Shown: one piece after another, positions 4,664 through 28,903 of the stretch
Numbering within the stretch: position 1 is the stretch's first letter
How the letters are laid out: each line of letters starts with the position of its first letter
Source of the DNA: a virus
Lineage: Duplodnaviria > Caudoviricetes
DNA length: 57,753 nt
IMG/VR virus record: IMGVR_UViG_3300022181_000117
Location: 1 to 57,753 of that record
Strand: one strand, 5' to 3'
Position numbers and translations under genes: made by a program
The notes under the pieces: generated by a model
The model's input: the letters and a program-made list of their open reading frames with translations, nothing else
The model's database searches: none
What the model was told of the DNA's origin: nothing

Positions 4664-5134
4664 TTACGCAAATTCGACCTTGATGGACGTGAGGTCGTTG
4701 TTCAGGTTCGTGCAGCCGGCCGTCACGGTGCGCCTGAGCCACAGCCTTTGAGCGGCTCCAACGGCGATATCGGGGATGCTCAGCTTGCTCGACGGCGTGT
4801 AATGCGCGAAGGTGACCCCCGAAGGCGCCGTGCTCTCGTTGGGGATCGTTTGCGTTCCGGCCTCGAGGCCGAGATCGAGCTCGGTCTTCGGACTCGGGGT
4901 GTCCGGGTCGATATAGACGGCGACGGACTGCGCCGCGGCGTTGCCGTTGTTGTACACGTCGACGGCCCGGTATTCCACGTCGCCGGCGGCCGCCTCTTCC
5001 GGGCTCACATTGTCGAAGAGGTTGTTCATGGCCGTGCCGCCGACCTGCGTGCTGCTGCGCGTCCCGCCAAGCGAGGCGTTGGGGTCGCTGTTTCCCGGCC
5101 CGCCGGTGAGGAAAAATTGGATTGAGGCCGCCAT
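4664..5134 (-). CDS. Phage virion/tail-associated protein
   Basis: G/S/T-rich; DPNASLGG...NNLFDNVS...EYRAVDVYN pattern of phage structural proteins; RBS AAAGGAG. Confidence 0.65.
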   Translation of the reverse strand: MAASIQFFLTGGPGNSDPNASLGGTRSSTQVGGTAMNNLFDNVSPEEAAAGDVEYRAVDVYNNGNAAAQSVAVYIDPDTPSPKTELDLGLEAGTQTIPNESTAPSGVTFAHYTPSSKLSIPDIAVGAAQRLWLRRTVTAGCTNLNNDLTSIKVEFA

Positions 5135-6022
5135 CTAATGTCTCCTTTGCAATGCATGAAAGGTGAATAATTGTGGTGTGGATTCAAACGAGAAGCATTC
5201 CCGCGACAGGACAAAACCGCTCTCGACCGGACCGGCTTCGAACTCGAACGGCGCACCGACGACCGAGAACCGGAACCGCCGTGCATCGGCGCTGAAAACG
5301 ATCTTGCTTTCCGTAAGGTCCGGGAGAATTTCGGCGATGATCCGCCATGCGATGTGCCGGGCGAGCCGGTTGAGCACTTCCCATCCGGATTCAAAATCCT
5401 CTCGCCTTAGAATCCTCCAGGAAGTTTCCCATTCGGATTCCCCGAGGATTTTCCAGGACAGGGCGCATTCGGCCAGGTTCCCGCCAAGATCCTGCCAGGA
5501 GATTTCCACCGAAAGACGGTTCAGCACCTGCCAGGCGGTTGCGGCCTCCAGGTCGGCAAGAATTCGCCATGCCGTCCCGCATTCGCGGGTATTGAATATC
5601 CGCCATGCCGTTTGAGAGGAAATCCCGGCAAGCGCCCTCCAGGCAAGATCGATCGAGGCCTTGGCGAGTATCCGCCAGGACAGGCCGGGGCTCTTCGCGT
5701 TCAGCACGCGCCATGCCGCATCCCGCGAAAGACCGGCAAGGACCCTCCACGCGGTTTCGAACGCTCCGGCGTCGATCACCCGCCAGGACGACTCTGCGGC
5801 AGCTCCCGCCATGACGCGCCATGCCGTCTCGAACGGAGCCGATGCATTGAGAATCCTCCACGACGCCTCGCGCGAATTCGCGTTCAGGGTTCGCCATGCC
5901 GTCGGGCATTCGACGAAGACGGCGGATGCAAAGGAAAAATTCACCGCATCGTGGACCGGAGGCGTATAGGCGCCGGCCAGTTCGAAATTGACGGCGTTCG
6001 CCGCCGGAGGCGTGTAGCTCAC
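5135..6022 (-). CDS. Tail-fibre-like protein with ~16 12-aa WR(I/V)L repeats
   Basis: Periodic (T/S)AWR(I/V)L units; duplicated N-terminal YTPP...VNF motif. Confidence 0.65.
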   Translation of the reverse strand: MSYTPPAANAVNFELAGAYTPPVHDAVNFSFASAVFVECPTAWRTLNANSREASWRILNASAPFETAWRVMAGAAAESSWRVIDAGAFETAWRVLAGLSRDAAWRVLNAKSPGLSWRILAKASIDLAWRALAGISSQTAWRIFNTRECGTAWRILADLEAATAWQVLNRLSVEISWQDLGGNLAECALSWKILGESEWETSWRILRREDFESGWEVLNRLARHIAWRIIAEILPDLTESKIVFSADARRFRFSVVGAPFEFEAGPVESGFVLSRECFSFESTPQLFTFHALQRRH

Positions 6023-6027
6023 ACCCT

Positions 6028-6408
6028 CTAGCTCCCCGGAGTCAGGTTGTCGTGAATGCGCCCGTCCGCGCTCTTATTGGGATCGAGGCAGACCACGAAA
6101 TACTCGGCGACGCTTCGGAGCGCCTCGAAGCTGTAAGCGCCCGCCGGGTTCGTTTTCGTCATGGAGACGAGCTGCATGGACGCGCGGTCGTAGAGTCCCA
6201 TCATGGCCCCGGAAACCGGGTTTTCATCGGAATCCGTGACGATGCCGGAAAGCGCTCCCGAATGCGCGAAAGATACATTCTGGCTGAAGTTCTCCATGAA
6301 CGCGCCGTGATTCAAAGGGCTGTAATCCCCGTGCATCAGGCGCAGATTCGGGGTGCGGTACTCGCAAAAGACCCGGTTGAAATGCCCGATCGATCCAAGA
6401 TCCGCCAT
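6028..6408 (-). CDS. Tail-associated protein with Ig/prealbumin-like (carboxypeptidase regulatory-like) domain
   Basis: LSGIVTD...PVSGA...T.TNPAGAYSF pattern. Confidence 0.55.
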   Translation of the reverse strand: MADLGSIGHFNRVFCEYRTPNLRLMHGDYSPLNHGAFMENFSQNVSFAHSGALSGIVTDSDENPVSGAMMGLYDRASMQLVSMTKTNPAGAYSFEALRSVAEYFVVCLDPNKSADGRIHDNLTPGS

Positions 6409-6418
6409 GTCGCGCTCC

Positions 6419-7369
6419 CTATCTGAAATTGATTGCGTCCCACGTGTCGCTGATTTCGATCAGGACGCAACTGTTGTAGATGCGAAATACCTCGACGGTT
6501 TTCCCATTCGCATTGGAGCTTGCATCGCCGCTGATAACGTCGCCCGTCGTGAACGAACCCAGCCTGTGACACGGCGCCCAAATACCGGGAAGCCTTCCTC
6601 GTATGATGCCGTATGTTGCGGTGGTATCCGGTTCGGTAATATAGAAGGGCGTCAGGAACAGGCTGCCCAGTATGGGATCCGGATAAAACGGATAGTTGGC
6701 GGTATTGGAGGCCATGTTCTCGGCGACCGCCGTAAGCCCGGACATCGGGGTTTTCCCGCAGGCAATGGAATAGGCGGCGCCGTCGTAGCGCTGCGAGAGA
6801 TAATGGCCGGAGACGGGGGTGTGCGTGGCGTTCTTGAAATTCTGGAATTGGCTGCCGCTGTTTGTGCTGCCGGTTGCGCCGATCAAGACGGTCCCGTTCG
6901 CATCGGAGGTCTTGTAGCTGACGAAATCCCCGAAGCAGCTGACCACGCCCGCAATTTGGTTATTGCTGTAATCGACGTAGAGATAGAAGATCTTCCCGTT
7001 TGAGATCAATACCCACGGATATCCCGATCCGGCCGCCTTGCAAAAGTACATTCCGCCCGACAGTTGCGCGTCCGTGGGGAACGGGTTCGTCCCCGAGCCG
7101 ACCGCGACGCCTGCGGCGGTGGCCACGGAAAACGCCCGGGCCCTGGCCGCGGTCGTGCCCGTATCGTCGATTCCCAAATAGAGGCGGTTGCCCGTCGGGG
7201 CGCGGTAGGTGGCGAGATTGGTCCCGGAGAATTCCTTCGTCCAGCCGAGCGCCGATTTGCTGCCGTACCCGTTCACCAGGCACGCATCGAGAATGGCGAT
7301 GAGTGCCCCGGCGGTGTTGGACAGGGTGGGAGCCGAATCGTCCGTTGATCTGAAAATGGAGATGGCCAT
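6419..7369 (-). CDS. Virion structural / tail fibre protein
   Basis: N-terminal STDDSAPTL...LDACLVNGYG...GWTKEF and C-terminal RGRLPG motifs typical of phage tail proteins; RBS AAGGAG. Confidence 0.7.
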   Translation of the reverse strand: MAISIFRSTDDSAPTLSNTAGALIAILDACLVNGYGSKSALGWTKEFSGTNLATYRAPTGNRLYLGIDDTGTTAARARAFSVATAAGVAVGSGTNPFPTDAQLSGGMYFCKAAGSGYPWVLISNGKIFYLYVDYSNNQIAGVVSCFGDFVSYKTSDANGTVLIGATGSTNSGSQFQNFKNATHTPVSGHYLSQRYDGAAYSIACGKTPMSGLTAVAENMASNTANYPFYPDPILGSLFLTPFYITEPDTTATYGIIRGRLPGIWAPCHRLGSFTTGDVISGDASSNANGKTVEVFRIYNSCVLIEISDTWDAINFR

Positions 7370-7426
7370 GTGTTCTCCTTATGGTGTGAAAATCGACAGC
7401 ACAATGTGAAAAATGGCCGCACAATG

Positions 7427-10400
7427 TTACATGCCCTGTTCCTCGTAGCTTTCGATGACGGCCAGTCGGCTCTTGTTCGGCCGGAGCATCTTTCTCACCT
7501 GGTCCCGCATGGAGTCCCGCGAGATGAGGGGAACCACCCGGCGCATGTCGTGTTCCCGAATGAACGTGTTGTAGCGCTCCACCTTGTCGAGGATGTCCCG
7601 CAACTTGCCGGGGTCCGCTTCGGCATCGGCGAGATAGGCCCGATATTCCTCGTAGATGTTCTTGCGTCGATCCGAAAAATTGGCCTGTTCGCGCCTGGCT
7701 TCCCGTTCGCGGGCCTCGACGGTTGCGCGTCTGCCGGACCGGAATCCCAGGATGCGCCCTGCCGTCTCTCCCCCTGTCGGGATGTAGGGCTTGCCCCGCT
7801 CATCCCATACGCGGTTTCCGCTGCTGGTCGTGGCGCCGTTCAATTCGCGCATGGCTCGCAGGAAGTTGCCAAGAAATCCCGGCGCGGCACGCTCCGCCGC
7901 GCGTCCGGGCTGGCCGGTCGCAAGGTAGTGGCCGGCCCGTCCGATGTCTTCCACGATGCCGCCGAACGCCCCGGTGAGATCGAGCAGCGTTCGCGGGGTC
8001 TGCATGCCAACGGCAAGGGAGCCGGAGAGATCGACCCCGGCCGCGCCGAGAAGACCATGCCGGGCGACCCGTTCGGCTTCTCCGCCGAGGTTTTCCCTGA
8101 TCACGTCGTAGACCATCTTTTCCGGGTCCCGGTCATCGCCCACGGCCCGCATCATGGCCTTGCCGATTTCCATCAGGATGGGAGTCGCCGCCATGGCCGA
8201 AGACCCCGCAAGGACGGCGGGGGAGAGGAGGGCGAAAGTGAACGCCTTGACGTTTCGCTTGTTCGCGCCCAGGTCGTAGAGGGTCTGCAGGTAGTTGTGG
8301 GCGAACTTGGCGTAGGTGTATCCCATCTGGCCGATTTTCGCCGCCGGGTTGCTCCCCATCGACCACATGGGCATCGTGGCCTTGCCGTAGATGCCGTGGG
8401 CCTTGTTGCTGGCGTTGACGGCGGCGTCCGCGGCTTCCTCGTGGGACAGGCCGCGCGCCCGCGCAAGGCGATACCCGGCCAGCATGGTGGAGCCCCGGAT
8501 CCATTCCTCGGATTTGCGGAACATCCACATGGCCTTGTCCATGACCGCCTGCCAGGATTTTCCGTAAGCCCCCGCAAGGTTCGCCATCGCCTCGCGGGTG
8601 AACTGCTCCAGGTTGGCCGAGCCTCTCATGCGCTCCATGAAAGCCTGCTCATCCTTGTTGCCGAGCGTCTTTTTCCCGGTCATGAAGCCCGCGAAATCAC
8701 GGGAAGCGCTCATGAGTTCCTTTCCCACCTTGAACAAGCCGCCCTTGCCCCCCATGGCGTATTCGTGAAGCGCGGGCGGAACGGTGGTGGCCATCGCCGT
8801 GATGTTGGCGAGCACCGTGCGCGGGGAAAAACCGAGGTACTTGAAGCTGACAAGGGATTTGCCGAACGCGATGGCCCGGTCGGTCGCGTCGGGGTTTCTC
8901 AGCATTTCGTGAATGTAGTCCGCGTAAGTCTGGTAGCGCTCCGGTTCCTTCGCGGGGTCGATGCCGCCTTCGTGAACGGATTTGGTTTGCCGGTCGGATT
9001 CGAGTTCCTTTGCCGTGAGCGCAATCGCGTTCGTCACGTCTCCTGCGTCATCCCGCAACACCCACTCGTCGCCTTCCCGTTCGTAGGTCTGGTACTCGCC
9101 CATCAAAGCCTTGAACATCTGCGACGCGGCCTTGCTTTTGGCGATGCCGCCCGCGGTCTGCTGCGCGTACATGAGGTTGCGGGTCAAGGGGTCCGTGATG
9201 TAGCCTCGAACCACGTCCCCTTCGGAGCGCTGGATCTTGTGGGCCCTGAATCCGCGTTCCTTCAGGATGTCGGCTGCGCTCTCCAGGACTTCCTTTCGAA
9301 GCCTTGCCGCGATTTCGGGATCGAGGTCCGCGCCCCTGACGGCCCGGTCCACGGCCGCCTGGATGTCGGGGATGGTGATGTCCTGGTAGATGGATTCGGG
9401 CAGGCGCTCGATGCGCTGCGGATCACTGATGTTCTTGTGACCCTCGCGCTTTAACCGTTCGATGAACTTGTAGGCCGCCCGCCGGGAAGGCTGGTGGAAG
9501 CGGTAGCGCTCTCCGCCCCTAGCCGAGGTGATGAACCAGTCCCCGGCCTCTCGGATCCGGGGGGAGTAGGAGCCCTTAAGCCAGCCCATCTGGTTGTAGA
9601 GGTCTTTCAACGTGACCTGATGGGGTTTGCCTTCCGCGTCCCTTTGCGTTCCAATCACCGGGACCGGCTTGCGAGCCTTCTCATAATGATTGAGCAGTTT
9701 TCGGATATCGGCACTCTGAAGCTCAAGCGCCTCATCGAGCATGTCCCGGATCTTGTCGACGGCCTCGATCACGTCTTTCGGAGCGCCTTCTCGCACGAGC
9801 TTGTCGCGGTAGGGCTCGATGATCTTGCCGTATGCGTCTTTCTGGTAGACGGGGTTGCCGTTTTCATCTTTGTGAACCCTCCACTTCCAGTTCATCCGGT
9901 CCATATAGTCGATGTGATGCCCGATGTCCTGGTATGCCTTCGGAGCGTCAGATTGATCGTAGAGATCGTACCCCTTTTGCCGGGTCCACCATCCCTTGCC
10001 CTTGAACATGACGACCTTCATCGCTTCGGCCACTTCGGGAGCCTTGAGCACCAGGTTCATGATCTGGTGGCGGTCTTCCTCCCGGCCTTGCGCGGCATCG
10101 AAAATGGCCTTCCCGACCTTGTTCTTCCAGTGTTCCGCGGTGATGAAGAGACGCCCGAGAAAGCCGGTTTCGGTGCGTTCCTCAACCCGGCCCGATGCGG
10201 CTTTTATGGTGGAGAGGAATTCATCGCGCCCTGCGTCTTTGAGGGAGAACGCGGGCTTGAATTGTCCTTCCGGGGTCATCAGTGAAAACAGCGGTTGTCC
10301 CTTCATGGCGGACTCGCGCATGGCGTCGGTCACGGGAAGAAAATGGACCATGGATACATCTCGTGTTCCGTGCGCTATCGGGATATTTGTCTCTCCGACC

Positions 10401-13400
10401 CTGGCCCCCCACTTCTTGACGTACTTGTTGACTTCGGAGGGAAGGATTCTGTCGTAGAAGCCTTTCATGCCCTCGCCGCCGACCTTGAGGTCGAGGCCAC
10501 GGAAAGACACTTCTTTCCCTGGTTGTTCGGCTTGTGCAATGATCTTCTCCGAAAGGTCCTTCCCGATGAAATCGGATAGTGCGTCAGGACTCATCGTTTC
10601 TTCGGAATGAATGATCACCCCATCCTTTTCGATGGAGATATTGTAGGTCCCGGGCAGGAAGCTATCTTGGGCGGCATATACGGTATCCACTTGTTTGCTC
10701 AGATCGTATCGCTCCGCCTGAACCGTGCCGGGGTCCCAGGAGATCCCGCCATACCCGTTCTCTGCGGCGTAACGGATCATGCGTTTCATGGCCAGCATGG
10801 CCCAGGAACCGGTTGACGTGACGAACGGGCCGCCAGGAATCATGTGGGCCGTTGCAGTTTGAGCGGGCGATTCCGCCAGTCGCCTGCGAGCTTCTTTTAT
10901 GGCCGCTTCCTCGGTCTTGACTTCAGGGTCGAAGATATTGGTTACAAAATCCCCGTCTTTTGTTGTGACTTCCCAATATCCATTGGAGTTCTCCGCATGG
11001 AGTTCCTGCTTGGCGAAATCTTTACGGAATCCTTTCTTCCTTCCCTCCTGCGCCCAATCGCTCTGCACTTCTGCAATGTGAAGCAGCTTCTCTCCGTCGG
11101 GACCGGTACGGTCATCGAAGCGCACATGGGCGAAAACGTTGGGCTCGGTCCAATGGGGGGATCGATAATTGCGTGTCGTATCGAGAGCAGCGCGGAAAAT
11201 CCCGTTGGGCGAATCCACGGCTTTTTCGTCTTTGGATACCGGTAACGTCAGCAGCAGTTCCCGGTAATTCTCCCCGCCCGGCTGGGTATACATGTCGTAG
11301 CGTGTTTCCTGGACTATCCCCATCTTCCGTGCAACGAGACGTAGGTCGTCCGGGAGTATTTGTGCTTTCCGGATTCGTTCCAGCAGTTCTTCCCTGGAAG
11401 CTTCTTCGATGCTGTCGAGATCGGCGAATTCCTCGTAGCCGAGAGAATCCACAATAGCCGCAGCTTCGCGGAGTTCCTCATCGCTCATGGCATGCCATCT
11501 GAGCCCCCTATACTTCGTCGCTTCCTCGATTTGCACTTCATTTTGCTTCAGGAAGTCCAGGATCTCCTGCTTGCCGATCTTGCCTTTTCGCTCGGCAAGC
11601 CATTCCAATAGACCGGACCATTGCAGTTCCTCCGCCTTGAATTCGCCCTTATTGGCCCAGGAATCGATCATGCTCCGGAAAGTCTCGGATTGCCCGGACC
11701 CGGGGAGTTTGTTGAGCAGGGTCCGTTGAAGTTGAGAATAGAACATGGGGGCCGCTTGCGAATAACGCGGGGTGAATGCGCCTTGAGAGCCCGGCCTGAA
11801 AGCTCCGCCCGATTCCACAGCCCGCCCGGCCCGCGCCACGAGAGCCTTGATGTCGGCCTCGGTGAGCCGGATGGTGAAGCCGATGTTCCTCAACGCTTCC
11901 CGGATCGCCGCATAGAGGCGTTTGAGAAATCCGGGCTTCTCGCCCTTCTCCGCCATGCGGGCGATCTTCTCGCGGGCGGCGCTCATTCTGCCGTCCCGGG
12001 TGCTGAGATCGAAACCGTAAAGGTCGGCAACTTCCTGGAGTCCTTTCTTGCCGTACAGCATGAAGACTTCCCTCAGGAAGGGTTGGAGCCGGTCTCCAAG
12101 GAGCGCCTCGACGCCGTAGTGCCCGACGAGCTCATGGAGCAGGACTTCCTGCAACCGCTCGGGCGTCGGAATGTTCTCGCCGACAAGGTAGACCGCGCCG
12201 GTTTCTCGGTCGTAGGCCGCCTCGGGAATGCCGCCTCTGTCCTTGGCCTCTTCGGCTACGTGCGCCGGAAGATCGTCCACCGAGTTGACCACTTCGACCC
12301 GGGGACCGCCGGGGAGCTTTTCGACAATGGGCTTGAGAATTCGCTGAAATTGTTGTATATTATTTAGTGTGGGGCCACGGAGCGTTTCAGGACGTTGAGA
12401 GAGGGGCTCTTCGGAGCGCGAAAACGCATCGGAGGGAGCACTGCTTGCCGTGGCCTTTCCTGTTTTTTTGTACATGGTCTTCGGGACAAGTTCCCCGGTT
12501 GCAGTTCTGACTTCTTCCAGGTAATAAACAAATCCGTTGACACGCTTGATGTATTGTATTACCCGGTTTCCATGCTTGGTTATCGATTTGCCAAGACGGA
12601 TCTTATTCGGTGGTTGGATGATTTCAGGTATGTGCAGGATATCTTCCCTGGTTATTGCAGCCTGCCCGCGCAAAGCCTCTCTTGCTTCATTTCCGTGTTG
12701 CTTCAGGATGTGCCGAATCGAATAATTGTCAACAATGTGCGCGTAGCCGGAAACGTCAATCTTGGCATCCTTTTCGATCCTGTCCGCTTCTTCCTCGTCA
12801 GCCTTCCGGATTTCGACTTTCCTGACCTTGCCCGCCGGGTTTTCCATGGCGTAATCGAAGAGATCGGAGAGCTTCCACTTGAGTTCGCTATCCCGCGAAA
12901 TGGAAAATGCGGCCCTGCGGCCGCCCGGCCGATACGGTGCGGTTTCATCCACGATGGGCCGGTTCCTGGTCAGTCTGGCAAGGACCGTCTCGCCCTCCTC
13001 ACCCGTTGGGACGAAATATCGCGTAGTGTATTGAATTCTCTCCCGGAAAATTCCGGCATCGTCGAGTTCCTTGTCATGAGCGTAATTCGGTCCGGTGAGC
13101 TCGATTCTCTTTTCGCCGGACACCCATCTTTCGGCCAGGCTCCAGTTGTTTGCCAGGCGCAAGGTGAAACCCTTGCCGAGAAGATCGATGGCCTTTGCCG
13201 GGGTATACTGCACATCGCTCCGGGATGCCCCGAGATTTGCAAGAACCTCGTTCAAGTCCTGGTGATTGATGAGTCTTCCGAGAAACCGCTTGCCGTCGCT
13301 CGTCTGCAGGCGGACGATTCGAGTGCTTCCCGTAAGGCGGTCCCAAATGGGAAGGACGGCCCCGGTTATCATGTGGGTTCTTTCGGTCACGGTTTTCGGT

Positions 13401-16400
13401 GCTTCCGCGAGATGTTTCTCCCATGCCTCTCGCGCCGCATCGCCTTCGAGCTTCGTCCACTTCTTGGTGTCGGTCAGTTCATCTTCGTGGACCTGCTGCG
13501 CCTTGGTGGCCGGGGATTTCAACGTGGCAACGTTGTAGACTTCTCCCGTCTTGTTGTTCGTTGTGGAACGGATAGGGCCGGCCGCCCAAATCTTCCCGCT
13601 CCTGACATTCCGGTAAATTCCGGTCTTGGCAAACCGCTGGCCTTCGGCGTAAGTCATCCGCGGAGCCGGATTGGTGATATCGACTTCCACGTATTTCGTC
13701 TCGGCCCCGGTCTTTTCATCCTTGTGGACCGTCTCTTCCTTGACGAGTACGATCTTGTCGGCGTGGATGTTCTCAAGGCCCTGATCGAGCGTCCCGAATT
13801 CGATCTCTCTTTCAATGACGGTATCGAGTTGATCCGAGAAGGCGTCGAAGACGGCATTCTGAGCTTCATACTTGAGAGAAAGAAGGCGGTTCAGAAACTG
13901 AGTCATCTGTGGATAACTGAAAGTCTGATTGCCGGTTTCGTTGATAAGTTTCAGACCTGTCTGCCGCTCGAATTCCTCGATGCCGACGCCGCCGATATGT
14001 CCATCCTGAAAGAGTTTGTCGATCGTGCGGAGAAGAGCTTCCTGGGCATATCTGCTTTCAAGATTATCCCTGGCCGTGAAGAATCCCTGGCTTCCGGCCT
14101 GGCGCTGTCCCTTGGTGAGCGCTCCAAGCTGATCAAGCCTCCGGGCGATGGAGGATATGAAGCGTGCCTGTCCTTTTAGATCGGTGGTCACCAGTAGATA
14201 ATGCGGGGCCTGTCGTTGATTGGTCCGGTGAGTGCGCCCAAAACCCTGAACGGCTACATCGGCCCGCCATCCCGGTTGCACCAGGAAATGAATGCGCTTC
14301 TCCTGGTTCTTCGCGGTCAGGTCGGCATGGTAGCTGAGTCCGGTTCCGCCCGCCGACGAGAAGATGAGGACGCGCTTCTTCCCGGCCTGGAACGCTGAGG
14401 CGTCCGCTTCAGTCTTGGCCTTGCTCCTGGACTCCTTGACTCTGTGGCCGTCCTCGCCGACCACGACCCGCTGAGTTCTCCCGGTTATCTCGGCCACGTT
14501 TTTCGCGCCGAATTCGTTCAGGATCATTTCCATTGGGCCGTCCGGAACCTTGATGCTTCCGATTTCGTCAAGGAGCCGTTCCCTCATCTCAACGGCTTCA
14601 CGGTTCTGAACGGGGTTGCCGTTGGAATCGAGCACCATCTGCGCTCGAATATTGCCGTTGTCGTCCATGTATTCTTCGTATTGAAAAACCGGGAAACTGT
14701 GCGCGATGTATTGAGCCAGCTGGTCGCGCGGCGTAAGATCGAGATCCTCCAGGGTATCTTCCTCGCCGAGCTTGGCAATCGCGCGGTTCAGGCTCGCTTC
14801 GTTGGTATTCACGAGTTGAATCACGCAGGAATTCCCCGTATCCAGTTCTTGATGCATGCGTTTCAATACGGACGGCATCTGGAGGGAGGTAATGATCTGG
14901 TTGAAAAACCTCTGATGCGAGCCCCAAAAGGCGGCCATGGCCGCGCCTTTGGCATCTCCGTTCATGAATGCCCCGGTCACTTCCAGTGCCTTGTTGACGT
15001 TGTTCAAGACCACCTGCCACCCTTCGGCCAGCTTGTCGTAAATCCCGCGTTGTTCGTCGGAAAGAGAGTGCTCCAGGCGGTCATAAGTCACGTCATGATA
15101 GGATAGGGACCGGGCAAGGTATTTGCCCATGGCCTTGAGATCGCGGGCAACCAACTCCATGGCCGCGATCCCTCCGGAGGAAATTTGGGAGACAAACGCC
15201 TTCACATTGGGGAATGCCGTTCCGGCCCCCCACAAACCCAGTCGCTTTGCATAGGCCAGATTCAGGACTTCCGTGGCGCCGGTTGCCGAGACATAAACCA
15301 CGCGAGCCTTGGGAAGCCTGTCCTGCAATTCGATTCCGGCAAGGGCCGTTTTCGACGGGTCTTTCGTTCCGCGCTCCCCCTTGACCTGAATGGCGTTGCC
15401 CATCTGGTGCGATTCATCGAAAACGATGACGCCGTCAAAATCCTTCCCGAGCCAATTGACGATCTGGTCGATTCTCTTTTGCGGAGGCATTCCTTCTTCT
15501 TTGGATTTCGTAACGTTTTTCAGTGTGGCGTAAGTGGTAAAAAGAATGCCCTCCTCTGCCTTCACGGGAGTTCCGGGCTTTATTTTCCCGAATTCGAAAA
15601 CCTTCTCCGGATCGTCTCCTATTCCCTCCACGTCTCTGCGTGCGTCCTTGAACAGACTGGAGTTCGCGCTGAGCCATACGCCTTGTTTGCGGCCCTTGTT
15701 CCAGTTGTCCAGGATGATGCCTGCGATTTCACGGCCCTTCCCGACGCCGGTCCCATCACCGATGAAATATCCTTGGCGCTCCCCGCTCTCAAGCATCGCG
15801 TTATGTGCTTGGCCGGCACGCACCACGTTCTCCAATTGAGCGTCGGAGAGTTTGCCTTCCTTGATGATCTTTTCGGGAATGGACGGACGATAGGCGACCG
15901 GCGGCGGCTTGACCGTCGCCATGGCGGCGCTTTCAACGAGGGTCCCGGGATGGGGTTTGGCTTTGGATATTGAAACGGTAGACTTGTACTGATCGTAAAC
16001 GGAATCGGAAAGCGCGGTTTTGGCGGCTTCCTCCTCGGCCTGCCGAACTTCTAGAGGTCCGGTCTCCCGGAGGCCACCATCTGGCTCCAAACCTGGTCGA
16101 GAAGGCTCCACGCGAACTGGAGTGGGGGCTTGTCCTTGTCTTCCAGAAGTCCCGGAAGGGCGCTCCCTCCTTCCTTGTCCTTTCCCTCCAAGATCTTCAT
16201 GGTATCCTTCGGATCGCCCAGGCTGAATGCCTCCACGGTCGCCTCTAACCTGTTGTCCAGGTCGAGTTCCCCCGTGCGGATGGCCCACAACATCAGCTGG
16301 TGCGCGTGGAGAAACGAGTAATCCACCTTCTCGCCCGCCTTCTCCAAGGCTTTCAATGCGGCCTGGTTGAGGGGCACTCTGTTGAGCCAGTTCACCAGTT

Positions 16401-19400
16401 TCTGTTTGTTGGCGGGCATCTCTGACTCCTTTGAGAATGGGCGGCGCTTCCTTCACATCTTCAACGCTTCCCTTGACGATATCATAGCCTTTGGGCTCTA
16501 TTTTGTCAATTATTATCAAACGGTTGTCAAAGCTTGTTCCGTACTTTTGATATCCCTTCCCGGACAAACCAATATCCGCGCGGACCGCATATTTACCGGT
16601 GATCTTATTCCACCACTTACGAAAAGCGGGCGCATCCATGGCCATTCCGCGACCGACTATCGCAACGAGCCTCCCGCCGGATTGCAGACGGTTCAACGCC
16701 TGTTCGATATGACGTTCGGCGTTGCTGGTTTTGCGTTGCCCGGTGATCCTTCCCGCCGTCGATGAAAAGGGCGGATTCATGATGATGATGGTGGGCCTGA
16801 CATCATCGGGCAGGATGTTGTCGAGCTGCTCCGCGTTCTCCGTGAAGACGCGATCGAATCCCATCTGTTTAAGAATCCCGGCCCGGCGCTCGGAGAACTC
16901 ATTCACATAGGTCCTGGCACCCGATGCTTTGGCAAATACCGCAAGACCGCCAATACCCGCGCTCGGCTCAAGAACCGTGTCCTTCCCGGTGATGTTCGCG
17001 GCCCAGGCCGCCAGGTAGGCGAGAGGGGGCGGAGTCGAAAACTGCTGAAACTCATCCATCTCGGCGGTGCGCTTGGACTGCGTGGGAAGCAGATTGATGA
17101 GGCGCTGCAACGCCTTGATCTGGTCCTTTGCGGCATCCATGTCGGCCGGAAGAGCTTCCCCTGTGAAATGGTCGAGGATGTACTGATTGACGCCCATCTC
17201 CATGGCATCGTAGGCATCCTTGGGGGTGTATTTGCCTTCCGCCTGGCTCCCGCCGAACGCTTCATTGCCCTTGGCGAAAAGATCCTTGGCGGAAAACATC
17301 TTTCCGGCGGCAATCTTGTCCTTCACCCAGGCGGCGAGTTGCCGGCTTGCGGATGATGCGGGAGCTGTTTCCGTTTTTGTTGTCGGAACAATCTCGGCCT
17401 TCGCGCCGGGTTGAGGGATGACCGGATAATTCTTTAAGGCATCGAGATATTCCTCGACGTGGTCCCCCAAACTGATTTCAGAGGGTTCTTTCCGTACCTT
17501 TTCCCCGGCCTGTTTCAGCTGTTTTCCGTATTTCTCTGCAAGATCCGGATATCGATTCAGCACTTCAGGTGGAATGATCTTGTTTTCTTTGAGTGCCGTC
17601 TCGACATGCTGACGATGAGCGACGGAAGCCGTTTGTTCAAAATGCTTTTCCGTTCCAACCAGAAATCCATGAGTTTCAGGAAGAAAGGGCTTCTTCAATT
17701 TCGTTTTGGCTTGCTCGGTGAACTCTTCCCGCGTCATCTCATGGGGCTGTTTTTCCGGACGGCTCTGTTTTTCAATGTCCCTGAGCACCCCCGGCAGTTC
17801 CTCGAAAGAATAAACCGCGTCGTGCTTGTCGATGGTGAACCGGAGTTTCGTGACATCGGTCTTCGGATCGAGCAGCACTTCATTGGCCGATTCGCCGCGT
17901 CCGACGATGGATTCCCGTGGCGCCACGATGCCCACCGGAACGTGCTCGTAATCCCCGTACATGGGAATGACCGGTTTGTCCCTGGTCGTGATCTCGGTCG
18001 CGCTGATTCCCGGCCGTCCTTCGAAAGATCGGCCTTCGCGCAATCGCTTGTTCTCCAACAGATATTGGAGTTCTTCGACATCGGTGGCACGGACTGCGGA
18101 ACCGAGAGGAATGTTTCCCGCCGCAACTTCACGTTGGATCACGTCTTTGACGTGCGCCTTCTCTTCGGCGATTTCCCTGGTGGTTGTAGGGGCCGCCTCG
18201 ATCTTATCGACGCTGTGCGCGGCTTCTTCAAGGGCAGCCTCAAGGTCGCTGCTCAACCTCGGGCCTTTGGGCTTTTCTGGACGTTCCTCCTGGATCGGTT
18301 TCTGTTCTTGAGCGCTTTCTTCCTGAGAAAGCGCCGCCTCCAATTCCCTTATGGCCTCGGCCGTACTCTCGACTCTGCGCTGTGAAGCGGCCACGTGGTT
18401 TGCGTTCAGCCATAGATTAGTCTCAAGACCATGCCCCATGCTCTTGTCGTAGTCGCTGACGGCGGCCTCTCCGCGAGTTTCGAGATCGGCCTTTCGAGCG
18501 AGATCGCGGGCGAGTTCCCTCCTGGCTTGCTCATGTTCCGCCCGGGCCTTTTGAAGCTTCTTTTCGAGGGCGGTCCTTTCCTTTTTCGTCATCTTCCTCG
18601 CCGGTTCGGGCTTTCCCATGGCCGGAGCCTGCGGCGCTACCTCGCCTTCCCGCCGCCCTTCCGGTGCTTGAAATACTCCACCTGCCGGAGCCGCTCGTTC
18701 GCCTGCGCCTCGCTCGGGTACGGGCCCCCCAGCCGCTTCTTGCCGTCCTCGGAGCGCACTTCCCATCCCTGCCTGGTTTTCACCTTCATAAGCCTGTCCT
18801 TCCTTGTAAGAAACGGGTTTCTTCGTTTGCTTCGGGTTTCTCACCCATCGTTTGAATTCCTTCATGCCCATTCCGGTGACGGCGCCCTTGCCCTGCCAGC
18901 CGGGGGCATAGTTCTGCCGGTAAATCTGTTCCGCCTCCGCCTGGCTGTTTGCGCCGAGAATCACCTTGTGTTCATCGAATTTCCCGGTTCCCGGGTCGAT
19001 CTGGTCGACCACGTAGGCCCGCTCGCTCGTGGGGTTCGGGCCGATGAACGCATCGACGTGGTCCTTGTCTTTTCCCTTGGTACCCAGGATGTAGCCGTAA
19101 TGATTTTGAAGCGTGGATTCCCAGCGCTTTCCCTCCTTGTCCGTCCCGGAGCGAATGGAGCCTTGCGGGTTCTCGATGCTGATTCCAAGCCCCTGGAAAT
19201 TCACCCGGCCTTTCTTGTAGTTCCCGGCTTCCTTCTGAGCCTCGGTCGGCTCCGGGCGTTCGTTCAGCGGAGAAGTCGCCGCCTCGTGGGCCTTCCGGTC
19301 GATGGTTTCGAGCGGAGCCTCGGCACTTTCGGGAGGCAGTGCCGGAGCGGCGGGTTCGACCGCGGGGGGCATCGGGTAGTTTTCCCGCCGGATGCCCTGG

Positions 19401-21112
19401 AGGGCTTCCCCGGCCAGGCGGTCTCTCAGAAGCTCCGCTCCCGCCGGAGACTGCATGCGGTTGAAGTCCTTGAGGAACACGCCGGCCGATTCCGCAGCCG
19501 ACTTGGAGACGGGTTGGAGCGGCTCCCGGCGGATGGCTCCCCCCTGGAGAAGGTCGCTCGTCTCGCTTCCGGGCATGGCGACAGGACCGGCGCTTTCCGT
19601 GTGCGGGGCTCCGGCGAGGATGTTGCTGCTGTCCGGGACTCTTTGAGCCCGTTCCATCTGTTGCTCGTAGAGCTCCTGCACGGCCATGCCGTCCGAGAGT
19701 TGCTGTTGACGGCGGGAGATGGCGCCCTGGTCGATGTTTTCGGGCGGGAAATTACGGCCGTACTGGTCCCAATACTGCTGTTCGGCCTCAATTTCCTCCC
19801 GTGTGGTCGGAACCGGGCGCCGGTCGATGTCCGAATAGAGTTTCTGCAGCTGGGCCAGTTCGGCTTGCTGCTCGTCGGTGCGCTGCCCCTCGGGCACCCC
19901 GGAAAGCTCGTCGATTCGCTTTTGGAGCATCGAGGCGTCGCGCCCGCGCGCGAGCCGCGAATAAGCCCCGCCGATCCCGCCGAACACCCCGCCGCCCACC
20001 GCTCCGGCCATGCCCGCCTCGAACATCCGCGCGGCGTTCTCCCCCGTGAACGCCTCGAACGTGGGGTCCGCGATGGCGAGGTTGGCGATGGAGAGCAACT
20101 CCTGCCCGGCTTCCTGCGCGAATTCCTGCGGGGCCTGGACGGCGGCCTCCTTGATGATGGAGCCGAGAAGGGACGTGTCCGCCTTTTCGAGCGCCTTCCT
20201 GAAGAGGGCCGTCTTTTCCGGCCCCACGATTCTCGATATGGTCCGGTAACTGCCGCCCGCAAGTTCCAGGAAAGACGAAGCGAGGCCCGTGGCCGCCGCC
20301 GTCAGGGGAGCGTCCGCGCCGCGCTCCGTCAGGGCTTCGGCGTAATTGCCCCCCGCCTCCAGGGGAAAGGTTCCGGCCACAACGCCCGTCGCGCCCCCAA
20401 GGGAGCGCATGGCAAGTTTCGATGCCGCCCGTTCCGCGACCTCCCGGGAAATCCCCCTGGTGACCATTTCCCCGGCCATCTTCTCGATGGATTTCTTGAG
20501 CGCCGTTTTGCCCAGCAGCCCCGCCGCCGCGCCCACGACCGTTCCGCCCACCGGCTCCACCGCGCTCCCCGCCGCCGCTCCCAGCAAGGCCATGCCCACG
20601 CTTTCCGCGACGCTCGGGAGCAGCTCGCCGACTTTCCCCGCTCCGTACTTATAGGCGGAAACCGGGCCGGTGATGTCCCGGAAGCTCGGCACCGACGCCG
20701 GATTCAACTCGGCTTCCTCCACGTTTCGGCGGTATCCCTCGATGCCCCAATTCTTCAGGCGGTCGATGCCCATGGCCGAACCGGCAAGCCCCGCCATGCC
20801 GTAAAGGGACGACTGCATCTGATCGATGCCCCGGAGCACCCCCCTCGTCAATTCCCCGCGCTTCTCCATGTTTTCCCGCGCGATTCCGCGCCGCTGCGCC
20901 TGGTAGGCTTCTTCCAGCATCGGATCCGGGGATGCGCCGTAAGCCGCCGGGGATGAAGGTCTTTGAATGGCCCGGGAAACGGGCGCGGCGGTTTCCGTGC
21001 CCTCACCGGGAGCCTCCGGTTCCCGCGGCGAAAAGACGGGACCGGCATCCGGCGGCCGCGCCCCGGTGATCGCATCGTATCCCTTGAGGAAATCGTCATA
21101 CGAAATGCCCAA
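7427..21112 (-). CDS. Giant (4561 aa) polyvalent DarB-like internal virion/ejection protein
   Basis: A/G-rich ejection-type N-terminus; inorganic-pyrophosphatase-like domain (~19300-18840, ISIENP..HYGY..KDHVDAFIG); N6-adenine MTase (~17340-16500, VLEPSAGIG, NPPF); Strawberry-notch SF2 helicase (~15970-12950, GDGTGVGKG, DESH, QGFGRTHR); PBECR3-like nuclease (~12880-12470, RHILKQHG); zincin HELVGH (~12130); EVQSDW domain (~11060). TTG start with GGAGG RBS. Confidence 0.9.
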   Translation of the reverse strand: MGISYDDFLKGYDAITGARPPDAGPVFSPREPEAPGEGTETAAPVSRAIQRPSSPAAYGASPDPMLEEAYQAQRRGIARENMEKRGELTRGVLRGIDQMQSSLYGMAGLAGSAMGIDRLKNWGIEGYRRNVEEAELNPASVPSFRDITGPVSAYKYGAGKVGELLPSVAESVGMALLGAAAGSAVEPVGGTVVGAAAGLLGKTALKKSIEKMAGEMVTRGISREVAERAASKLAMRSLGGATGVVAGTFPLEAGGNYAEALTERGADAPLTAAATGLASSFLELAGGSYRTISRIVGPEKTALFRKALEKADTSLLGSIIKEAAVQAPQEFAQEAGQELLSIANLAIADPTFEAFTGENAARMFEAGMAGAVGGGVFGGIGGAYSRLARGRDASMLQKRIDELSGVPEGQRTDEQQAELAQLQKLYSDIDRRPVPTTREEIEAEQQYWDQYGRNFPPENIDQGAISRRQQQLSDGMAVQELYEQQMERAQRVPDSSNILAGAPHTESAGPVAMPGSETSDLLQGGAIRREPLQPVSKSAAESAGVFLKDFNRMQSPAGAELLRDRLAGEALQGIRRENYPMPPAVEPAAPALPPESAEAPLETIDRKAHEAATSPLNERPEPTEAQKEAGNYKKGRVNFQGLGISIENPQGSIRSGTDKEGKRWESTLQNHYGYILGTKGKDKDHVDAFIGPNPTSERAYVVDQIDPGTGKFDEHKVILGANSQAEAEQIYRQNYAPGWQGKGAVTGMGMKEFKRWVRNPKQTKKPVSYKEGQAYEGENQAGMGSALRGRQEAAGGPVPERGAGERAAPAGGVFQAPEGRREGEVAPQAPAMGKPEPARKMTKKERTALEKKLQKARAEHEQARRELARDLARKADLETRGEAAVSDYDKSMGHGLETNLWLNANHVAASQRRVESTAEAIRELEAALSQEESAQEQKPIQEERPEKPKGPRLSSDLEAALEEAAHSVDKIEAAPTTTREIAEEKAHVKDVIQREVAAGNIPLGSAVRATDVEELQYLLENKRLREGRSFEGRPGISATEITTRDKPVIPMYGDYEHVPVGIVAPRESIVGRGESANEVLLDPKTDVTKLRFTIDKHDAVYSFEELPGVLRDIEKQSRPEKQPHEMTREEFTEQAKTKLKKPFLPETHGFLVGTEKHFEQTASVAHRQHVETALKENKIIPPEVLNRYPDLAEKYGKQLKQAGEKVRKEPSEISLGDHVEEYLDALKNYPVIPQPGAKAEIVPTTKTETAPASSASRQLAAWVKDKIAAGKMFSAKDLFAKGNEAFGGSQAEGKYTPKDAYDAMEMGVNQYILDHFTGEALPADMDAAKDQIKALQRLINLLPTQSKRTAEMDEFQQFSTPPPLAYLAAWAANITGKDTVLEPSAGIGGLAVFAKASGARTYVNEFSERRAGILKQMGFDRVFTENAEQLDNILPDDVRPTIIIMNPPFSSTAGRITGQRKTSNAERHIEQALNRLQSGGRLVAIVGRGMAMDAPAFRKWWNKITGKYAVRADIGLSGKGYQKYGTSFDNRLIIIDKIEPKGYDIVKGSVEDVKEAPPILKGVRDARQQTETGELAQQSAPQPGRIESLGEGGREGGLLVSPRAPADVVGHPHGGTRPGQQVRGDRGGIQPGRSEGYHEDLGGKGQGRRERPSGTSGRQGQAPTPVRVEPSRPGLEPDGGLRETGPLEVRQAEEEAAKTALSDSVYDQYKSTVSISKAKPHPGTLVESAAMATVKPPPVAYRPSIPEKIIKEGKLSDAQLENVVRAGQAHNAMLESGERQGYFIGDGTGVGKGREIAGIILDNWNKGRKQGVWLSANSSLFKDARRDVEGIGDDPEKVFEFGKIKPGTPVKAEEGILFTTYATLKNVTKSKEEGMPPQKRIDQIVNWLGKDFDGVIVFDESHQMGNAIQVKGERGTKDPSKTALAGIELQDRLPKARVVYVSATGATEVLNLAYAKRLGLWGAGTAFPNVKAFVSQISSGGIAAMELVARDLKAMGKYLARSLSYHDVTYDRLEHSLSDEQRGIYDKLAEGWQVVLNNVNKALEVTGAFMNGDAKGAAMAAFWGSHQRFFNQIITSLQMPSVLKRMHQELDTGNSCVIQLVNTNEASLNRAIAKLGEEDTLEDLDLTPRDQLAQYIAHSFPVFQYEEYMDDNGNIRAQMVLDSNGNPVQNREAVEMRERLLDEIGSIKVPDGPMEMILNEFGAKNVAEITGRTQRVVVGEDGHRVKESRSKAKTEADASAFQAGKKRVLIFSSAGGTGLSYHADLTAKNQEKRIHFLVQPGWRADVAVQGFGRTHRTNQRQAPHYLLVTTDLKGQARFISSIARRLDQLGALTKGQRQAGSQGFFTARDNLESRYAQEALLRTIDKLFQDGHIGGVGIEEFERQTGLKLINETGNQTFSYPQMTQFLNRLLSLKYEAQNAVFDAFSDQLDTVIEREIEFGTLDQGLENIHADKIVLVKEETVHKDEKTGAETKYVEVDITNPAPRMTYAEGQRFAKTGIYRNVRSGKIWAAGPIRSTTNNKTGEVYNVATLKSPATKAQQVHEDELTDTKKWTKLEGDAAREAWEKHLAEAPKTVTERTHMITGAVLPIWDRLTGSTRIVRLQTSDGKRFLGRLINHQDLNEVLANLGASRSDVQYTPAKAIDLLGKGFTLRLANNWSLAERWVSGEKRIELTGPNYAHDKELDDAGIFRERIQYTTRYFVPTGEEGETVLARLTRNRPIVDETAPYRPGGRRAAFSISRDSELKWKLSDLFDYAMENPAGKVRKVEIRKADEEEADRIEKDAKIDVSGYAHIVDNYSIRHILKQHGNEAREALRGQAAITREDILHIPEIIQPPNKIRLGKSITKHGNRVIQYIKRVNGFVYYLEEVRTATGELVPKTMYKKTGKATASSAPSDAFSRSEEPLSQRPETLRGPTLNNIQQFQRILKPIVEKLPGGPRVEVVNSVDDLPAHVAEEAKDRGGIPEAAYDRETGAVYLVGENIPTPERLQEVLLHELVGHYGVEALLGDRLQPFLREVFMLYGKKGLQEVADLYGFDLSTRDGRMSAAREKIARMAEKGEKPGFLKRLYAAIREALRNIGFTIRLTEADIKALVARAGRAVESGGAFRPGSQGAFTPRYSQAAPMFYSQLQRTLLNKLPGSGQSETFRSMIDSWANKGEFKAEELQWSGLLEWLAERKGKIGKQEILDFLKQNEVQIEEATKYRGLRWHAMSDEELREAAAIVDSLGYEEFADLDSIEEASREELLERIRKAQILPDDLRLVARKMGIVQETRYDMYTQPGGENYRELLLTLPVSKDEKAVDSPNGIFRAALDTTRNYRSPHWTEPNVFAHVRFDDRTGPDGEKLLHIAEVQSDWAQEGRKKGFRKDFAKQELHAENSNGYWEVTTKDGDFVTNIFDPEVKTEEAAIKEARRRLAESPAQTATAHMIPGGPFVTSTGSWAMLAMKRMIRYAAENGYGGISWDPGTVQAERYDLSKQVDTVYAAQDSFLPGTYNISIEKDGVIIHSEETMSPDALSDFIGKDLSEKIIAQAEQPGKEVSFRGLDLKVGGEGMKGFYDRILPSEVNKYVKKWGARVGETNIPIAHGTRDVSMVHFLPVTDAMRESAMKGQPLFSLMTPEGQFKPAFSLKDAGRDEFLSTIKAASGRVEERTETGFLGRLFITAEHWKNKVGKAIFDAAQGREEDRHQIMNLVLKAPEVAEAMKVVMFKGKGWWTRQKGYDLYDQSDAPKAYQDIGHHIDYMDRMNWKWRVHKDENGNPVYQKDAYGKIIEPYRDKLVREGAPKDVIEAVDKIRDMLDEALELQSADIRKLLNHYEKARKPVPVIGTQRDAEGKPHQVTLKDLYNQMGWLKGSYSPRIREAGDWFITSARGGERYRFHQPSRRAAYKFIERLKREGHKNISDPQRIERLPESIYQDITIPDIQAAVDRAVRGADLDPEIAARLRKEVLESAADILKERGFRAHKIQRSEGDVVRGYITDPLTRNLMYAQQTAGGIAKSKAASQMFKALMGEYQTYEREGDEWVLRDDAGDVTNAIALTAKELESDRQTKSVHEGGIDPAKEPERYQTYADYIHEMLRNPDATDRAIAFGKSLVSFKYLGFSPRTVLANITAMATTVPPALHEYAMGGKGGLFKVGKELMSASRDFAGFMTGKKTLGNKDEQAFMERMRGSANLEQFTREAMANLAGAYGKSWQAVMDKAMWMFRKSEEWIRGSTMLAGYRLARARGLSHEEAADAAVNASNKAHGIYGKATMPMWSMGSNPAAKIGQMGYTYAKFAHNYLQTLYDLGANKRNVKAFTFALLSPAVLAGSSAMAATPILMEIGKAMMRAVGDDRDPEKMVYDVIRENLGGEAERVARHGLLGAAGVDLSGSLAVGMQTPRTLLDLTGAFGGIVEDIGRAGHYLATGQPGRAAERAAPGFLGNFLRAMRELNGATTSSGNRVWDERGKPYIPTGGETAGRILGFRSGRRATVEAREREARREQANFSDRRKNIYEEYRAYLADAEADPGKLRDILDKVERYNTFIREHDMRRVVPLISRDSMRDQVRKMLRPNKSRLAVIESYEEQGM
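12333..12361 (+). promoter_or_regulatory. Antisense sigma70 promoter inside the giant gene
   Basis: TTGAGA (12333-12338), 17 bp, TATATT (12356-12361) in an AT-rich patch within GC-rich coding DNA. Confidence 0.65.
12368..12469 (+). ncRNA. Candidate structured antisense small RNA (~100 nt)
   Basis: Closing stem GGCCACGG (12373-80) / CCGTGGCC (12448-55); inner stem GCGTTT (12382-87) / AAACGC (12422-27); GCTC-TTCG-GAGC tetraloop hairpin (12406-17); T7 tract (12463-69). Confidence 0.55.
16051..16419 (-). CDS. Nested (overprinted, +1 frame) 122-aa helical protein inside the giant gene
   Basis: AAAGGAG 7 nt before the ATG and its own promoter upstream. Globular amino-acid composition, whereas the host frame here is G/R/P low-complexity. 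Confidence 0.75.
   Translation of the reverse strand: MPANKQKLVNWLNRVPLNQAALKALEKAGEKVDYSFLHAHQLMLWAIRTGELDLDNRLEATVEAFSLGDPKDTMKILEGKDKEGGSALPGLLEDKDKPPLQFAWSLLDQVWSQMVASGRPDL
16481..16509 (-). promoter_or_regulatory. Internal near-consensus sigma70 promoter for the nested gene
   Basis: TTGACA (16509-16504), 17 bp, TATGAT (16486-16481), ~60 bp upstream of ATG 16419. Confidence 0.75.
18637..18789 (-). CDS. Nested (overprinted, +1 frame) 50-aa basic protein inside the giant gene
   Basis: Hand-translated MKVKTRQGWEVRSEDGKKRLGGPYPSEAQANERLRQVEYFKHRKGGGKAR*; RBS AAGGAAGG upstream; below the ORF-track cutoff. Confidence 0.65.
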   Translation of the reverse strand: MKVKTRQGWEVRSEDGKKRLGGPYPSEAQANERLRQVEYFKHRKGGGKAR

Positions 21113-27241: not shown

Positions 27242-27244
27242 CGG

Positions 27245-27673
27245 CTACGTCTCCAGCTTCACTTCGATGTTCGTCACCTGCAGCGGGTTGCCGTCGGTGG
27301 CCGTTTTGTTCCCGTTGAAATCGAAGTAGCAGACGATGGTGTCGTCGGAGCTTGTGTCGTCAATGAGAATTGCTCCCGGAGTGGGACCAATCGATCCGCC
27401 GGAGGCGATCCATTGGGCGTCGCTTGCCGTGTACTTCGCCTTGTTGTTGGCATCGTCCTCGGTGACCGCGCCGCCGGAGAGCGTGAGTCCTCCCGCCGTG
27501 TAGCCGTTTCCGGCCGCGAGCTCGGATGCCGACACATCCGCCCAGGTGGCGTGATTGTCCTCGTTGAAGACGAACCCGGAAGCCATGAGCCGGAGTTTCA
27601 GCGTGTCCGCGCTCATATCGATGACCTTTTTCATGAGCTGGTACACGAAATGATTGCTGCACTTGCTTGCCAT
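27245..27673 (-). CDS. Small phage structural protein
   Basis: DTLKLRLM...GNGYTAGG..L pattern common in tail-associated proteins. Confidence 0.7.
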   Translation of the reverse strand: MASKCSNHFVYQLMKKVIDMSADTLKLRLMASGFVFNEDNHATWADVSASELAAGNGYTAGGLTLSGGAVTEDDANNKAKYTASDAQWIASGGSIGPTPGAILIDDTSSDDTIVCYFDFNGNKTATDGNPLQVTNIEVKLET

Positions 27674-27688
27674 CCGAGCCCCTCCTTA

Positions 27689-28066: not shown

Positions 28067-28087
28067 GTTCGAGCCTCCCCGTGCCGT

Positions 28088-28798: not shown

Positions 28799-28819
28799 CG
28801 GTTTTGCTCCTTTCTCGAA

Positions 28820-28903
28820 TTACCTCAGTTGGTGCCGCTCGATCAGTATGCCGACCGCCACCCAAAACAGCGCCAGCAGGCAGTGAAGGATCATTTCGCC
28901 CAT
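28820..28903 (-). CDS. 27-aa single-pass membrane peptide
   Basis: MGEMILHCLLALFWVAVGILIERHQLR; fills the intergenic gap; GGAAGG RBS. Confidence 0.35.
   Translation of the reverse strand: MGEMILHCLLALFWVAVGILIERHQLR

Follow-up and report, generated by a model that had tools for sequence, protein, structure and literature searches.

We analysed a 57,753-nucleotide (nt) stretch of phage DNA, referred to here as the window (IMG/VR virus record IMGVR_UViG_3300022181_000117; Duplodnaviria, Caudoviricetes), which carries a giant gene for a DarB-like polyvalent protein of 4561 amino acids (aa). The domains of this protein follow each other in the order pyrophosphatase (InPase), methyltransferase (MTase), strawberry-notch (Sno) helicase and PBECR3. 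We found that the gene is very probably dual-coding at two of its inter-domain linkers, each of which also encodes a separate small folded protein in the +1 frame, one of 50 aa (P0002) and the other of 122 aa (P0003). The linker stretches would hold the 4561-aa protein together when read in frame 0. In frame +1, where each stretch has a Shine-Dalgarno (SD) site and an ATG of its own, they would give the two separate small proteins. A preliminary description of the window had proposed that each enzymatic module carries a hidden passenger in its trailing linker, and both of the small genes it named, behind InPase and behind the MTase, were confirmed, each with an SD site, an ATG, a coding signal and a family.

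The coding frame of the giant gene was examined with a likelihood scan of 453 segments of 120 nt, based on the gene's own codon usage and with both suspect regions kept out of the training. Frames other than 0 won in just two blocks, aa 771-830 (18623..18802) and aa 1561-1700 (16013..16432). Both blocks were in frame +1 and coincided with the 50-aa and the 122-aa open reading frames (ORFs). GC content by codon position also switched to the +1 phase at both ORFs, for example 0.83, 0.58 and 0.30 compared to 0.63, 0.44 and 0.70 gene-wide. Across both stretches the giant-frame peptide is of low complexity and rich in G, P, R and E, and the +1 translations resemble ordinary proteins. Each nested ORF lies wholly within the giant gene on the same strand, and an SD-like site with ATG or GTG precedes the embedded ORF in the window and in all the embedded relatives examined. 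When the nested protein was held fixed and its codons were resampled, the giant frame was still open in 0.1% (P0003) and 13% (P0002) of the trials. Since the giant frame so seldom stays open, both frames are constrained. The idea that a nested gene rich in GC at third codon positions keeps the giant frame open "for free" was ruled out by the P = 0.001 for P0003. Other alternative-frame blocks flagged in the relatives L081, L085 and L086 were junk rich in R, P and S and were rejected, suggesting that embedded genes occupy particular linkers and not all. The coordinates of the features are given in Table 1.

Table 1. Features of the giant gene and its embedded genes, in coordinates of the window
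Feature	Coordinates	Strand	Remarks
Giant polyvalent (DarB-like) protein gene	7427..21112	minus	4561 aa, single frame without stop
InPase domain	18842..19243	minus	aa 624-757; Pfam PF18823, E 5.6e-56
SD-like site AAGGAAGGA	18797..18805	minus	7-8 nt upstream of P0002 ATG (AAGGAAGGA-N8-ATG), read from sequence
Embedded gene 1 (P0002)	18637..18789	minus	50 aa, +1 frame; directly behind InPase; motif RLRQVEYFKH
N6-adenine MTase-like domain	16493..17104	minus	aa ~1337-1540; PHROG DNA methyltransferase families
Sigma-70-like site TTGACA-17-TATGAT	16481..16509	minus	11/12; 62 nt upstream of P0003 ATG
SD site AAGGAG	16426..16431	minus	AAGGAG-N6-ATG; written by giant-frame motif K-G-V-R-D
Embedded gene 2 (P0003)	16051..16419	minus	122 aa, +1 frame; MTase-to-helicase linker
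RNA-library contig stretch	15903..16463	not shown	one contig per run, two runs (521 and 559 nt), over 122-aa gene
Sno helicase	13772..15955	minus	AAA_34 aa 1720-2027, Helicase_C_4 aa 2194-2447; Pfam
PBECR3 nuclease-like domain	12452..12805	minus	aa 2770-2887; Pfam, E 4.2e-23
Candidate antisense small RNA	12333..12473	plus	promoter-like site 12333..12361 and stretch ending in T-run; not supported

P0003 belongs to a family that was found only as an embedded gene, between the MTase and the Sno helicase of giant genes in this phage lineage. A HMMER search of 1.84 billion representatives gave 28 matches at E <= 1e-3, of which 27 were 112-140 aa long and one was a 43-aa fragment. Without the fragment, the matches were aligned with P0003, most of them across its length, and one was 90% identical. 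In all eight of the loci with DNA reached in this way (L081, L082 and L083-L088), the gene was in frame +1 of an ORF of 3349-4596 aa, between the MTase and the Sno helicase. The SD site and start lie under a conserved giant-frame motif, which in most of the eight loci is (K/L/Q/E)-(G/E)-V-R-(D/N); L086 and L088 differ. An independent sample was obtained by searching with the helicase N-lobe alone, which recovered 10 loci. Six of these had a match to the P0003 hidden Markov model (HMM) in frame +1 of the same linker (E 2e-29 to 7.5e-16), and the other four had a +1 ORF of 113-117 aa that begins at the same G-V-R-N/D motif. A P0003-type gene was, therefore, found at the MTase-helicase linker in 14 loci by homology and in 4 by position. 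The embedded ORF was the longest of 335-475 alternative-frame ORFs in four low-GC loci (38-45% GC), where it had, for example, 145 codons compared to 51 for the next-longest, or 137 compared to 61. The second-longest alternative-frame ORFs of two low-GC giant genes (L099 and L100; 126 and 107 codons) were also outliers and might be further embedded genes. No match to P0003 was found by tblastn in GenBank phages, GenBank plasmids or genome contigs.

Relatives of P0002 were collected through a pattern scan of IMG/VR, in which 97 were found and 80 loci kept. Part of the invariance of RLRQVEYF among them reflects ascertainment, as the scan itself used this motif among its patterns. Counting the window, 53 copies were short free ORFs, 18 were in frame within ORFs of at least 150 aa and 10 were embedded. 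The embedded copies, which are those of the window and nine other loci (eight distinct), lie inside ORFs of 629 to over 2253 aa, and the enclosing large frame was invariably at +2 of the peptide frame. All eight distinct embedded copies had a GGAG-type site ahead of ATG or GTG, compared to 35 of the 61 short-ORF loci overall. Out-of-frame embedded copies came from phages of 46-59% GC. The in-frame copies came from genomes with a GC content of 28-43%, except for two at 57-66%, and were mostly without the initial M and the SD site. In the protein database P0002 had just five matches, all unnamed.

The surroundings of P0002 differ from copy to copy. Embedded copies occupy differing domain junctions, such as upstream of InPase in L057 and upstream of an MTase in L064, and in L081 InPase is present and a P0002 homologue is absent. 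Elsewhere, members of the family are free genes of packaging or head modules or in-frame domains within large proteins. The downstream neighbours of six free copies were tested, and four were terminase large subunits, one was of connector type and one matched no family. The unrelated junctions, the absence beside InPase in L081 and the free copies near terminase genes argue that P0002 is not the partner of InPase. As judged from these sequences, capture of the 50-aa module into the giant gene is plausible, since the module also occurs free-standing and as an in-frame domain. When the neighbours of free copies were compared with the embedding large ORFs, there was no BLAST match at E <= 1e-6 and, thus, a direct capture series was not obtained for P0002.

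Substitutions at the 50-aa gene could be sorted by frame with a close relative, a DNA contig of run X2 that is about 92% identical over 18621..19300. None of the four listed differences inside the gene changed the nested peptide (G, E, G and R kept), and each of them changed the giant peptide (R>G, A>T, P>A and A>T). In the adjoining InPase stretch, 18 of 31 differences were on giant-frame third positions. This pattern suggests that the frame under purifying selection switches at the 50-aa gene. The same relative has other sequence in place of the linker stretches 17481..17778 and 18177..18621 (302 and 110 letters). Its similarity to the window resumes 16 nt past the stop of the 50-aa gene and, thus, the variable linker starts immediately behind the embedded gene.

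Both small proteins were confidently modeled by AlphaFold. P0002, a small and basic protein, was predicted as a three-stranded sheet and one helix (beta-beta-beta-alpha) with a predicted local distance difference test score (pLDDT) of 86.7. P0003 was predicted as seven helices with a pLDDT of 84.7 and a predicted template modeling score of 0.81, from 35 sequences. Foldseek gave no matches at E <= 1e-3 for P0002 against the PDB or for P0003 against the PDB and BFVD, and the best hit of P0003 in a wide fold search had a Z of 4.1. Sequence profiles of the PDB showed nothing significant for either protein, and Pfam, PHROGs and NCBIfam gave nothing or weak matches (DUF2795, E 0.058; phrog_3684, E 0.008). 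In the ESM Atlas, P0002 falls with clusters of unnamed 45-50-aa proteins. A weak ankyrin-like lead for P0003 in the same atlas was not accepted, as the shared features were low. A complex prediction of P0003 with giant aa 1240-2110 returned a score of 0.00, which is "no answer" and bears on neither side.

A third embedded family, absent from the window, was found in cultured phages. In the DarB-like gene of Agrobacterium phage Atu_ph08 (L089, NC_070876.1), the frame scan picked a 102-aa +1 ORF at 10442-10747 that begins with MNLNNW. This family (P0037, ~100 aa) had tblastn matches in 21 GenBank phage records, always beneath the giant gene, and none of the records annotates it as a gene of its own. 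The frame was +1 by coordinates in POI1126, VvAW1, Mwe-JY07, Pavtok, LASTA and Atu_ph08; when the sequences were read, PBC5 had the same +1 relation and Itty13 had a large ORF on the strand of the match. An SD-like site with ATG lies under the giant-frame motif NEPEQL (NESQPL in LASTA) in seven of these eight phages. For POI1126 the match begins at query residue 3, and the start was placed by eye and is less certain. The family is, therefore, embedded and unannotated in at least seven cultured phages checked by frame, with Agrobacterium, Sinorhizobium, Ochrobactrum, Vibrio, Microcystis, Erwinia and Klebsiella as hosts. It matches the C-terminal end of phrog_938. Three unrelated embedded families have been seen so far (P0002, P0003 and MNLNNW), and the phenomenon recurs in other polyvalent genes.

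Other details of these phages were recorded. Atu_ph08 has a second alternative-frame coding-like block at 16718-17236 of L089 (giant aa 3891-3960), just upstream of LPD39, and its C-terminal part, MAQQAAPIRGFHGDPP..., is protein-like. In Sinorhizobium phage PBC5 (L090, NC_003324.1), the RefSeq coding sequence (CDS) of the giant gene, 26155..32697, terminates in the embedded gene's frame. In an older record the region is divided between orf33 and orf34. A frameshift, an error in sequencing or a genuine split may lie behind this. In Pseudomonas phage Itty13 (L096, NC_070969.1), the sole annotated feature over the match is a CDS on the opposite strand, 5006..8467; the strand may have been called wrongly in this GC-rich genome.

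RNA libraries were searched for cover of the embedded genes. Nine metatranscriptome runs, which may stem from one campaign, contain 10-18% of the sampled words of 15900..19300, and two of them (X6 and X7) were examined as contigs. Contigs over P0003 covered 15943..16463 at a depth of 21.9 and 15903..16461 at a depth of 10.1, and neither run had a contig over 16470..18380. The -10 box (16486..16481) of the sigma-70-like site upstream of P0003 predicts a transcript start, and the contig edge is 11-13 nt past it. A DNA contig spans this edge at 16462, with no loose ends. The pattern is a weak hint of a discrete RNA for the 122-aa gene. The 50-aa gene and the rest of the examined stretch had no RNA contig cover in X6 and X7, from which nothing was concluded.

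We infer that both ORFs are translated as free proteins, and their timing and both functions are proposed on the same footing. The 50-aa protein may be an accessory of the packaging or virion module and possibly a nucleic-acid binder. The 122-aa protein would be an accessory of the DarB-like MTase-helicase module that must be available as a free molecule, with a dose or timing of its own, while the giant protein is assembled for the virion. It has a host-type promoter-like site upstream and seems to be made from a short RNA of its own. Even without that site, translation starting internally on the giant mRNA would be enough to make P0003.

The preliminary description had read the passengers in another way, as cognate immunity or antidote genes that were captured together with each enzymatic domain to form a layered effector/immunity system in one ORF. 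We consider this improbable. P0003-type ORFs were always at the MTase-Sno helicase junction, in the eight loci reached by homology as well as in the helicase-found sample, and the P0002 module is free-standing elsewhere, so its capture is possible. However, P0002 does not track InPase, as described above, and there is no embedded gene behind PBECR3, the one clearly nuclease-like domain. Passengers were found in just two linkers of the giant gene, and by none of the results here are InPase and the MTase-helicase self-toxic effectors. The family libraries also showed no likeness of the small proteins to a known antitoxin or immunity family, and no antitoxin-like fold was found. A toxin/antidote reading of both embedded genes is, therefore, unlikely. 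Of the co-segregation of passengers with domains, the half that concerns the 122-aa gene and the MTase-helicase junction stood and the half that concerns the 50-aa gene and InPase did not. Likewise, the in-frame capture of effector-plus-partner cassettes is plausible as to the 50-aa module, but the cassette pairing with InPase fails. Given its co-occurrence with the MTase-Sno helicase junction, the 122-aa gene may still have a module-specific partner role, as far as the sequences suggest.

Several results weigh against dual coding with separately expressed small proteins. The giant gene has seven +1-frame ORFs of at least 100 aa, compared to 6.6 +/- 1.8 expected from 300 synonymous resamples with the giant peptide fixed. 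Under the same resampling, the +1 frame was open with P = 0.42 for the 122-aa ORF and 0.91 for the 50-aa ORF. The openness and length of the ORFs are thus no better than chance, and significance must rest on other evidence. Part of that evidence is thin. The frame-specific substitution test comprises four sites in one low-depth contig, and divergence by codon position among distant loci is near saturation and favors the nested frame weakly (0.55, 0.49 and 0.59 at nested positions 1, 2 and 3). The four HMM-negative loci resemble the P0003 family weakly (hhalign E 0.0027, probability 11%). Neither the strand nor the real ends of an RNA can be read from the contigs, and libraries made from RNA may contain DNA. 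The promoter-like site is at the same place in just three of the eight loci (11, 11 and 10 of 12) and is made of conserved MTase codons. The promoter that had been claimed behind the MTase is thus present as a motif in the window but is not generally kept, and it may be lineage-specific. As for expression from within the linker, both genes have their own SD site and start and the 122-aa gene also has the promoter-like site and the RNA contigs, but the RNA cover is a weak hint and was seen for the 122-aa gene alone. Lastly, the wide fold search with P0002 reached a Z of 5.0 at most, with the lambda Int N-domain and AP2-type DNA binders among the hits, which is within the range of common arrangements and too weak for naming a fold. 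No family, fold or neighbor in the libraries, fold searches and profiles above points to the function of either small protein.

The chance-level openness would fit the possibility that the nested ORFs are untranslated fossils of overrun genes or by-products of a linker peptide rich in G, P, R and E. This is nonetheless very hard to reconcile with the remaining data, and we give it little credence. All embedded copies examined have kept the SD site and the start codon, and the ORF persists as a strong length outlier at 38-45% GC. The four substitutions in X2 were all silent in the nested frame, both families are predicted to have confident, alignment-driven folds, and a discrete RNA-library contig lies over the 122-aa gene. 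Selection on the embedded frame is, therefore, indicated by the codon-usage switch, the families, the kept embedding, the length outliers at low GC and, with a small sample, the silent substitutions.

Programmed +1 ribosomal frameshifting, which would give shorter giant isoforms ending in the 50-aa or 122-aa module, is just as doubtful. It would agree with the P0002 module being an in-frame and sometimes C-terminal domain in the 18 loci, from low-GC phages, and with the PBC5 CDS that ends in the frame of the MNLNNW family, but most embedded P0002 copies have a nested-frame stop just 2-17 codons ahead of their start (33 codons in L064), no common slippery motif was seen, and an SD site with ATG or GTG stands at the family N-terminus in every embedded copy. 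For the MNLNNW family, the upstream nested-frame stop is 2-5 codons away in three of the eight phages and at least 20 in the others, and PBC5 is open upstream.

An antisense small RNA had also been claimed behind the nuclease domain. The plus-strand site there, TTGAGA-17-TATATT, matches at 10 of 12 positions, but promoter-like sites were not enriched in 11800..19400 (3 compared to 1.9 +/- 1.6 in shuffles). The 155 nt downstream of the site fold worse than the shuffle mean (z = +1.20), with 179 of 200 shuffles folding as well, and Rfam and tRNA scans were empty for the candidate. In the plus strand of 12366..12473, an 8-bp stem, GGCCACGG / CCGTGGCC, closes a stretch of ~90 nt and is followed by a T-run that comes from giant-frame lysine codons. 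The stem looks like a terminator, but its stability is not above that of shuffles. The PBECR3 region was absent from the relatives found. Since the sites were not enriched, the fold was no better than shuffles and no Rfam family matched, the small RNA was rejected and treated as chance. With this passenger gone, signal in just two linkers and the other blocks of relatives being junk, the claim that each enzymatic module carries a passenger was not sustained.

The giant ORF itself combines several unrelated enzyme or effector domains in one very large phage polypeptide. Its PHROGs matches include "DarB-like antirestriction", and the MTase-like region also has a weak match to Pfam MTS and an NPPF motif that can be read in the giant-frame translation. 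By its predicted domains, the ORF is a polyvalent protein in the sense of Iyer et al. 2017 (PMC5512222). The DarB-like giants of Bcep22-like podophages are virion-associated by mass spectrometry, and gp69 of phage JC1 was detected by this method (PMC9144972). By analogy with JC1 gp69 only, the giant protein of the window would be delivered with the virion. The neighbors of the giant gene include a DNA methyltransferase gene and a gene for a tail-assembly-like protein. Elsewhere in the window, GC falls to 0.41 at 46001..48000, compared to 0.55-0.64 in the rest.

The arrangement was compared with known systems. Rz1, embedded in Rz in phage lambda and many other phages, is a small +1 gene on the same strand with its own start, and both products are needed. 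The window is similar in that it has whole small genes with their own starts nested in frame +1 of a larger gene of the same strand. Unlike Rz and Rz1, which are two subunits of one lysis complex with a small host gene, the host gene here is 13.7 kb and multi-domain, and the embedded genes are of two unrelated families, lie only in disordered linkers and have no established functional link to the host protein. The Rz1-in-Rz arrangement is also mentioned in a passage on the Bcep22-like phage JC1 (PMC9144972). As in overprinted genes of small viruses, both frames are constrained here, with P = 0.001-0.13 for the giant frame staying open. Examples of such overprinting are phiX174 B in A and E in D, which are explained by pressure on genome size and by de novo origin. 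In contrast to these, the 50-aa family is also a free gene and an in-frame domain, which suggests capture rather than de novo birth. With polyvalent proteins and DarB of phage P1, the giant protein of the window shares the defining multi-effector architecture. It differs from the described concept in holding embedded genes, and the main text of Iyer et al. 2017 (PMC5512222) contains the words "overlapping", "frameshift" and "linker" zero times each. A literature search at the level of listings and abstracts likewise gave no account of genes that are embedded in, or overlap, those for polyvalent or DarB-like proteins. In polymorphic toxin cassettes, each immunity gene is a separate ORF behind the toxin and goes along with the toxin domain. 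The window resembles these in having a modular large protein with small genes nearby, but its small genes lie within the ORF, one of them is not tied to the adjoining domain and toxicity of the domains is not established.

Embedded small genes of this sort escape routine annotation; to our knowledge, gene callers disallow genes nested within genes. Tentatively, and at somewhat less than an even chance, conserved embedded genes in the disordered linkers of virion-delivered polyvalent giants could be a general unannotated feature of phages that supplies free, separately timed partners, such as regulators, assembly helpers or counter-defence factors, for capsid-delivered modules. The 50-aa module, with its three forms as a free gene, an in-frame domain and an out-of-frame embedded gene, provides a rare visible series for the origin of overlapping genes, and the case illustrates how multi-domain giants may be assembled. 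If the small proteins do serve DarB-like anti-restriction or DNA packaging, some of the machinery of this widespread group of phages has so far gone unseen, and a knock-out or recoding of the giant gene would unknowingly strike two or three genes.

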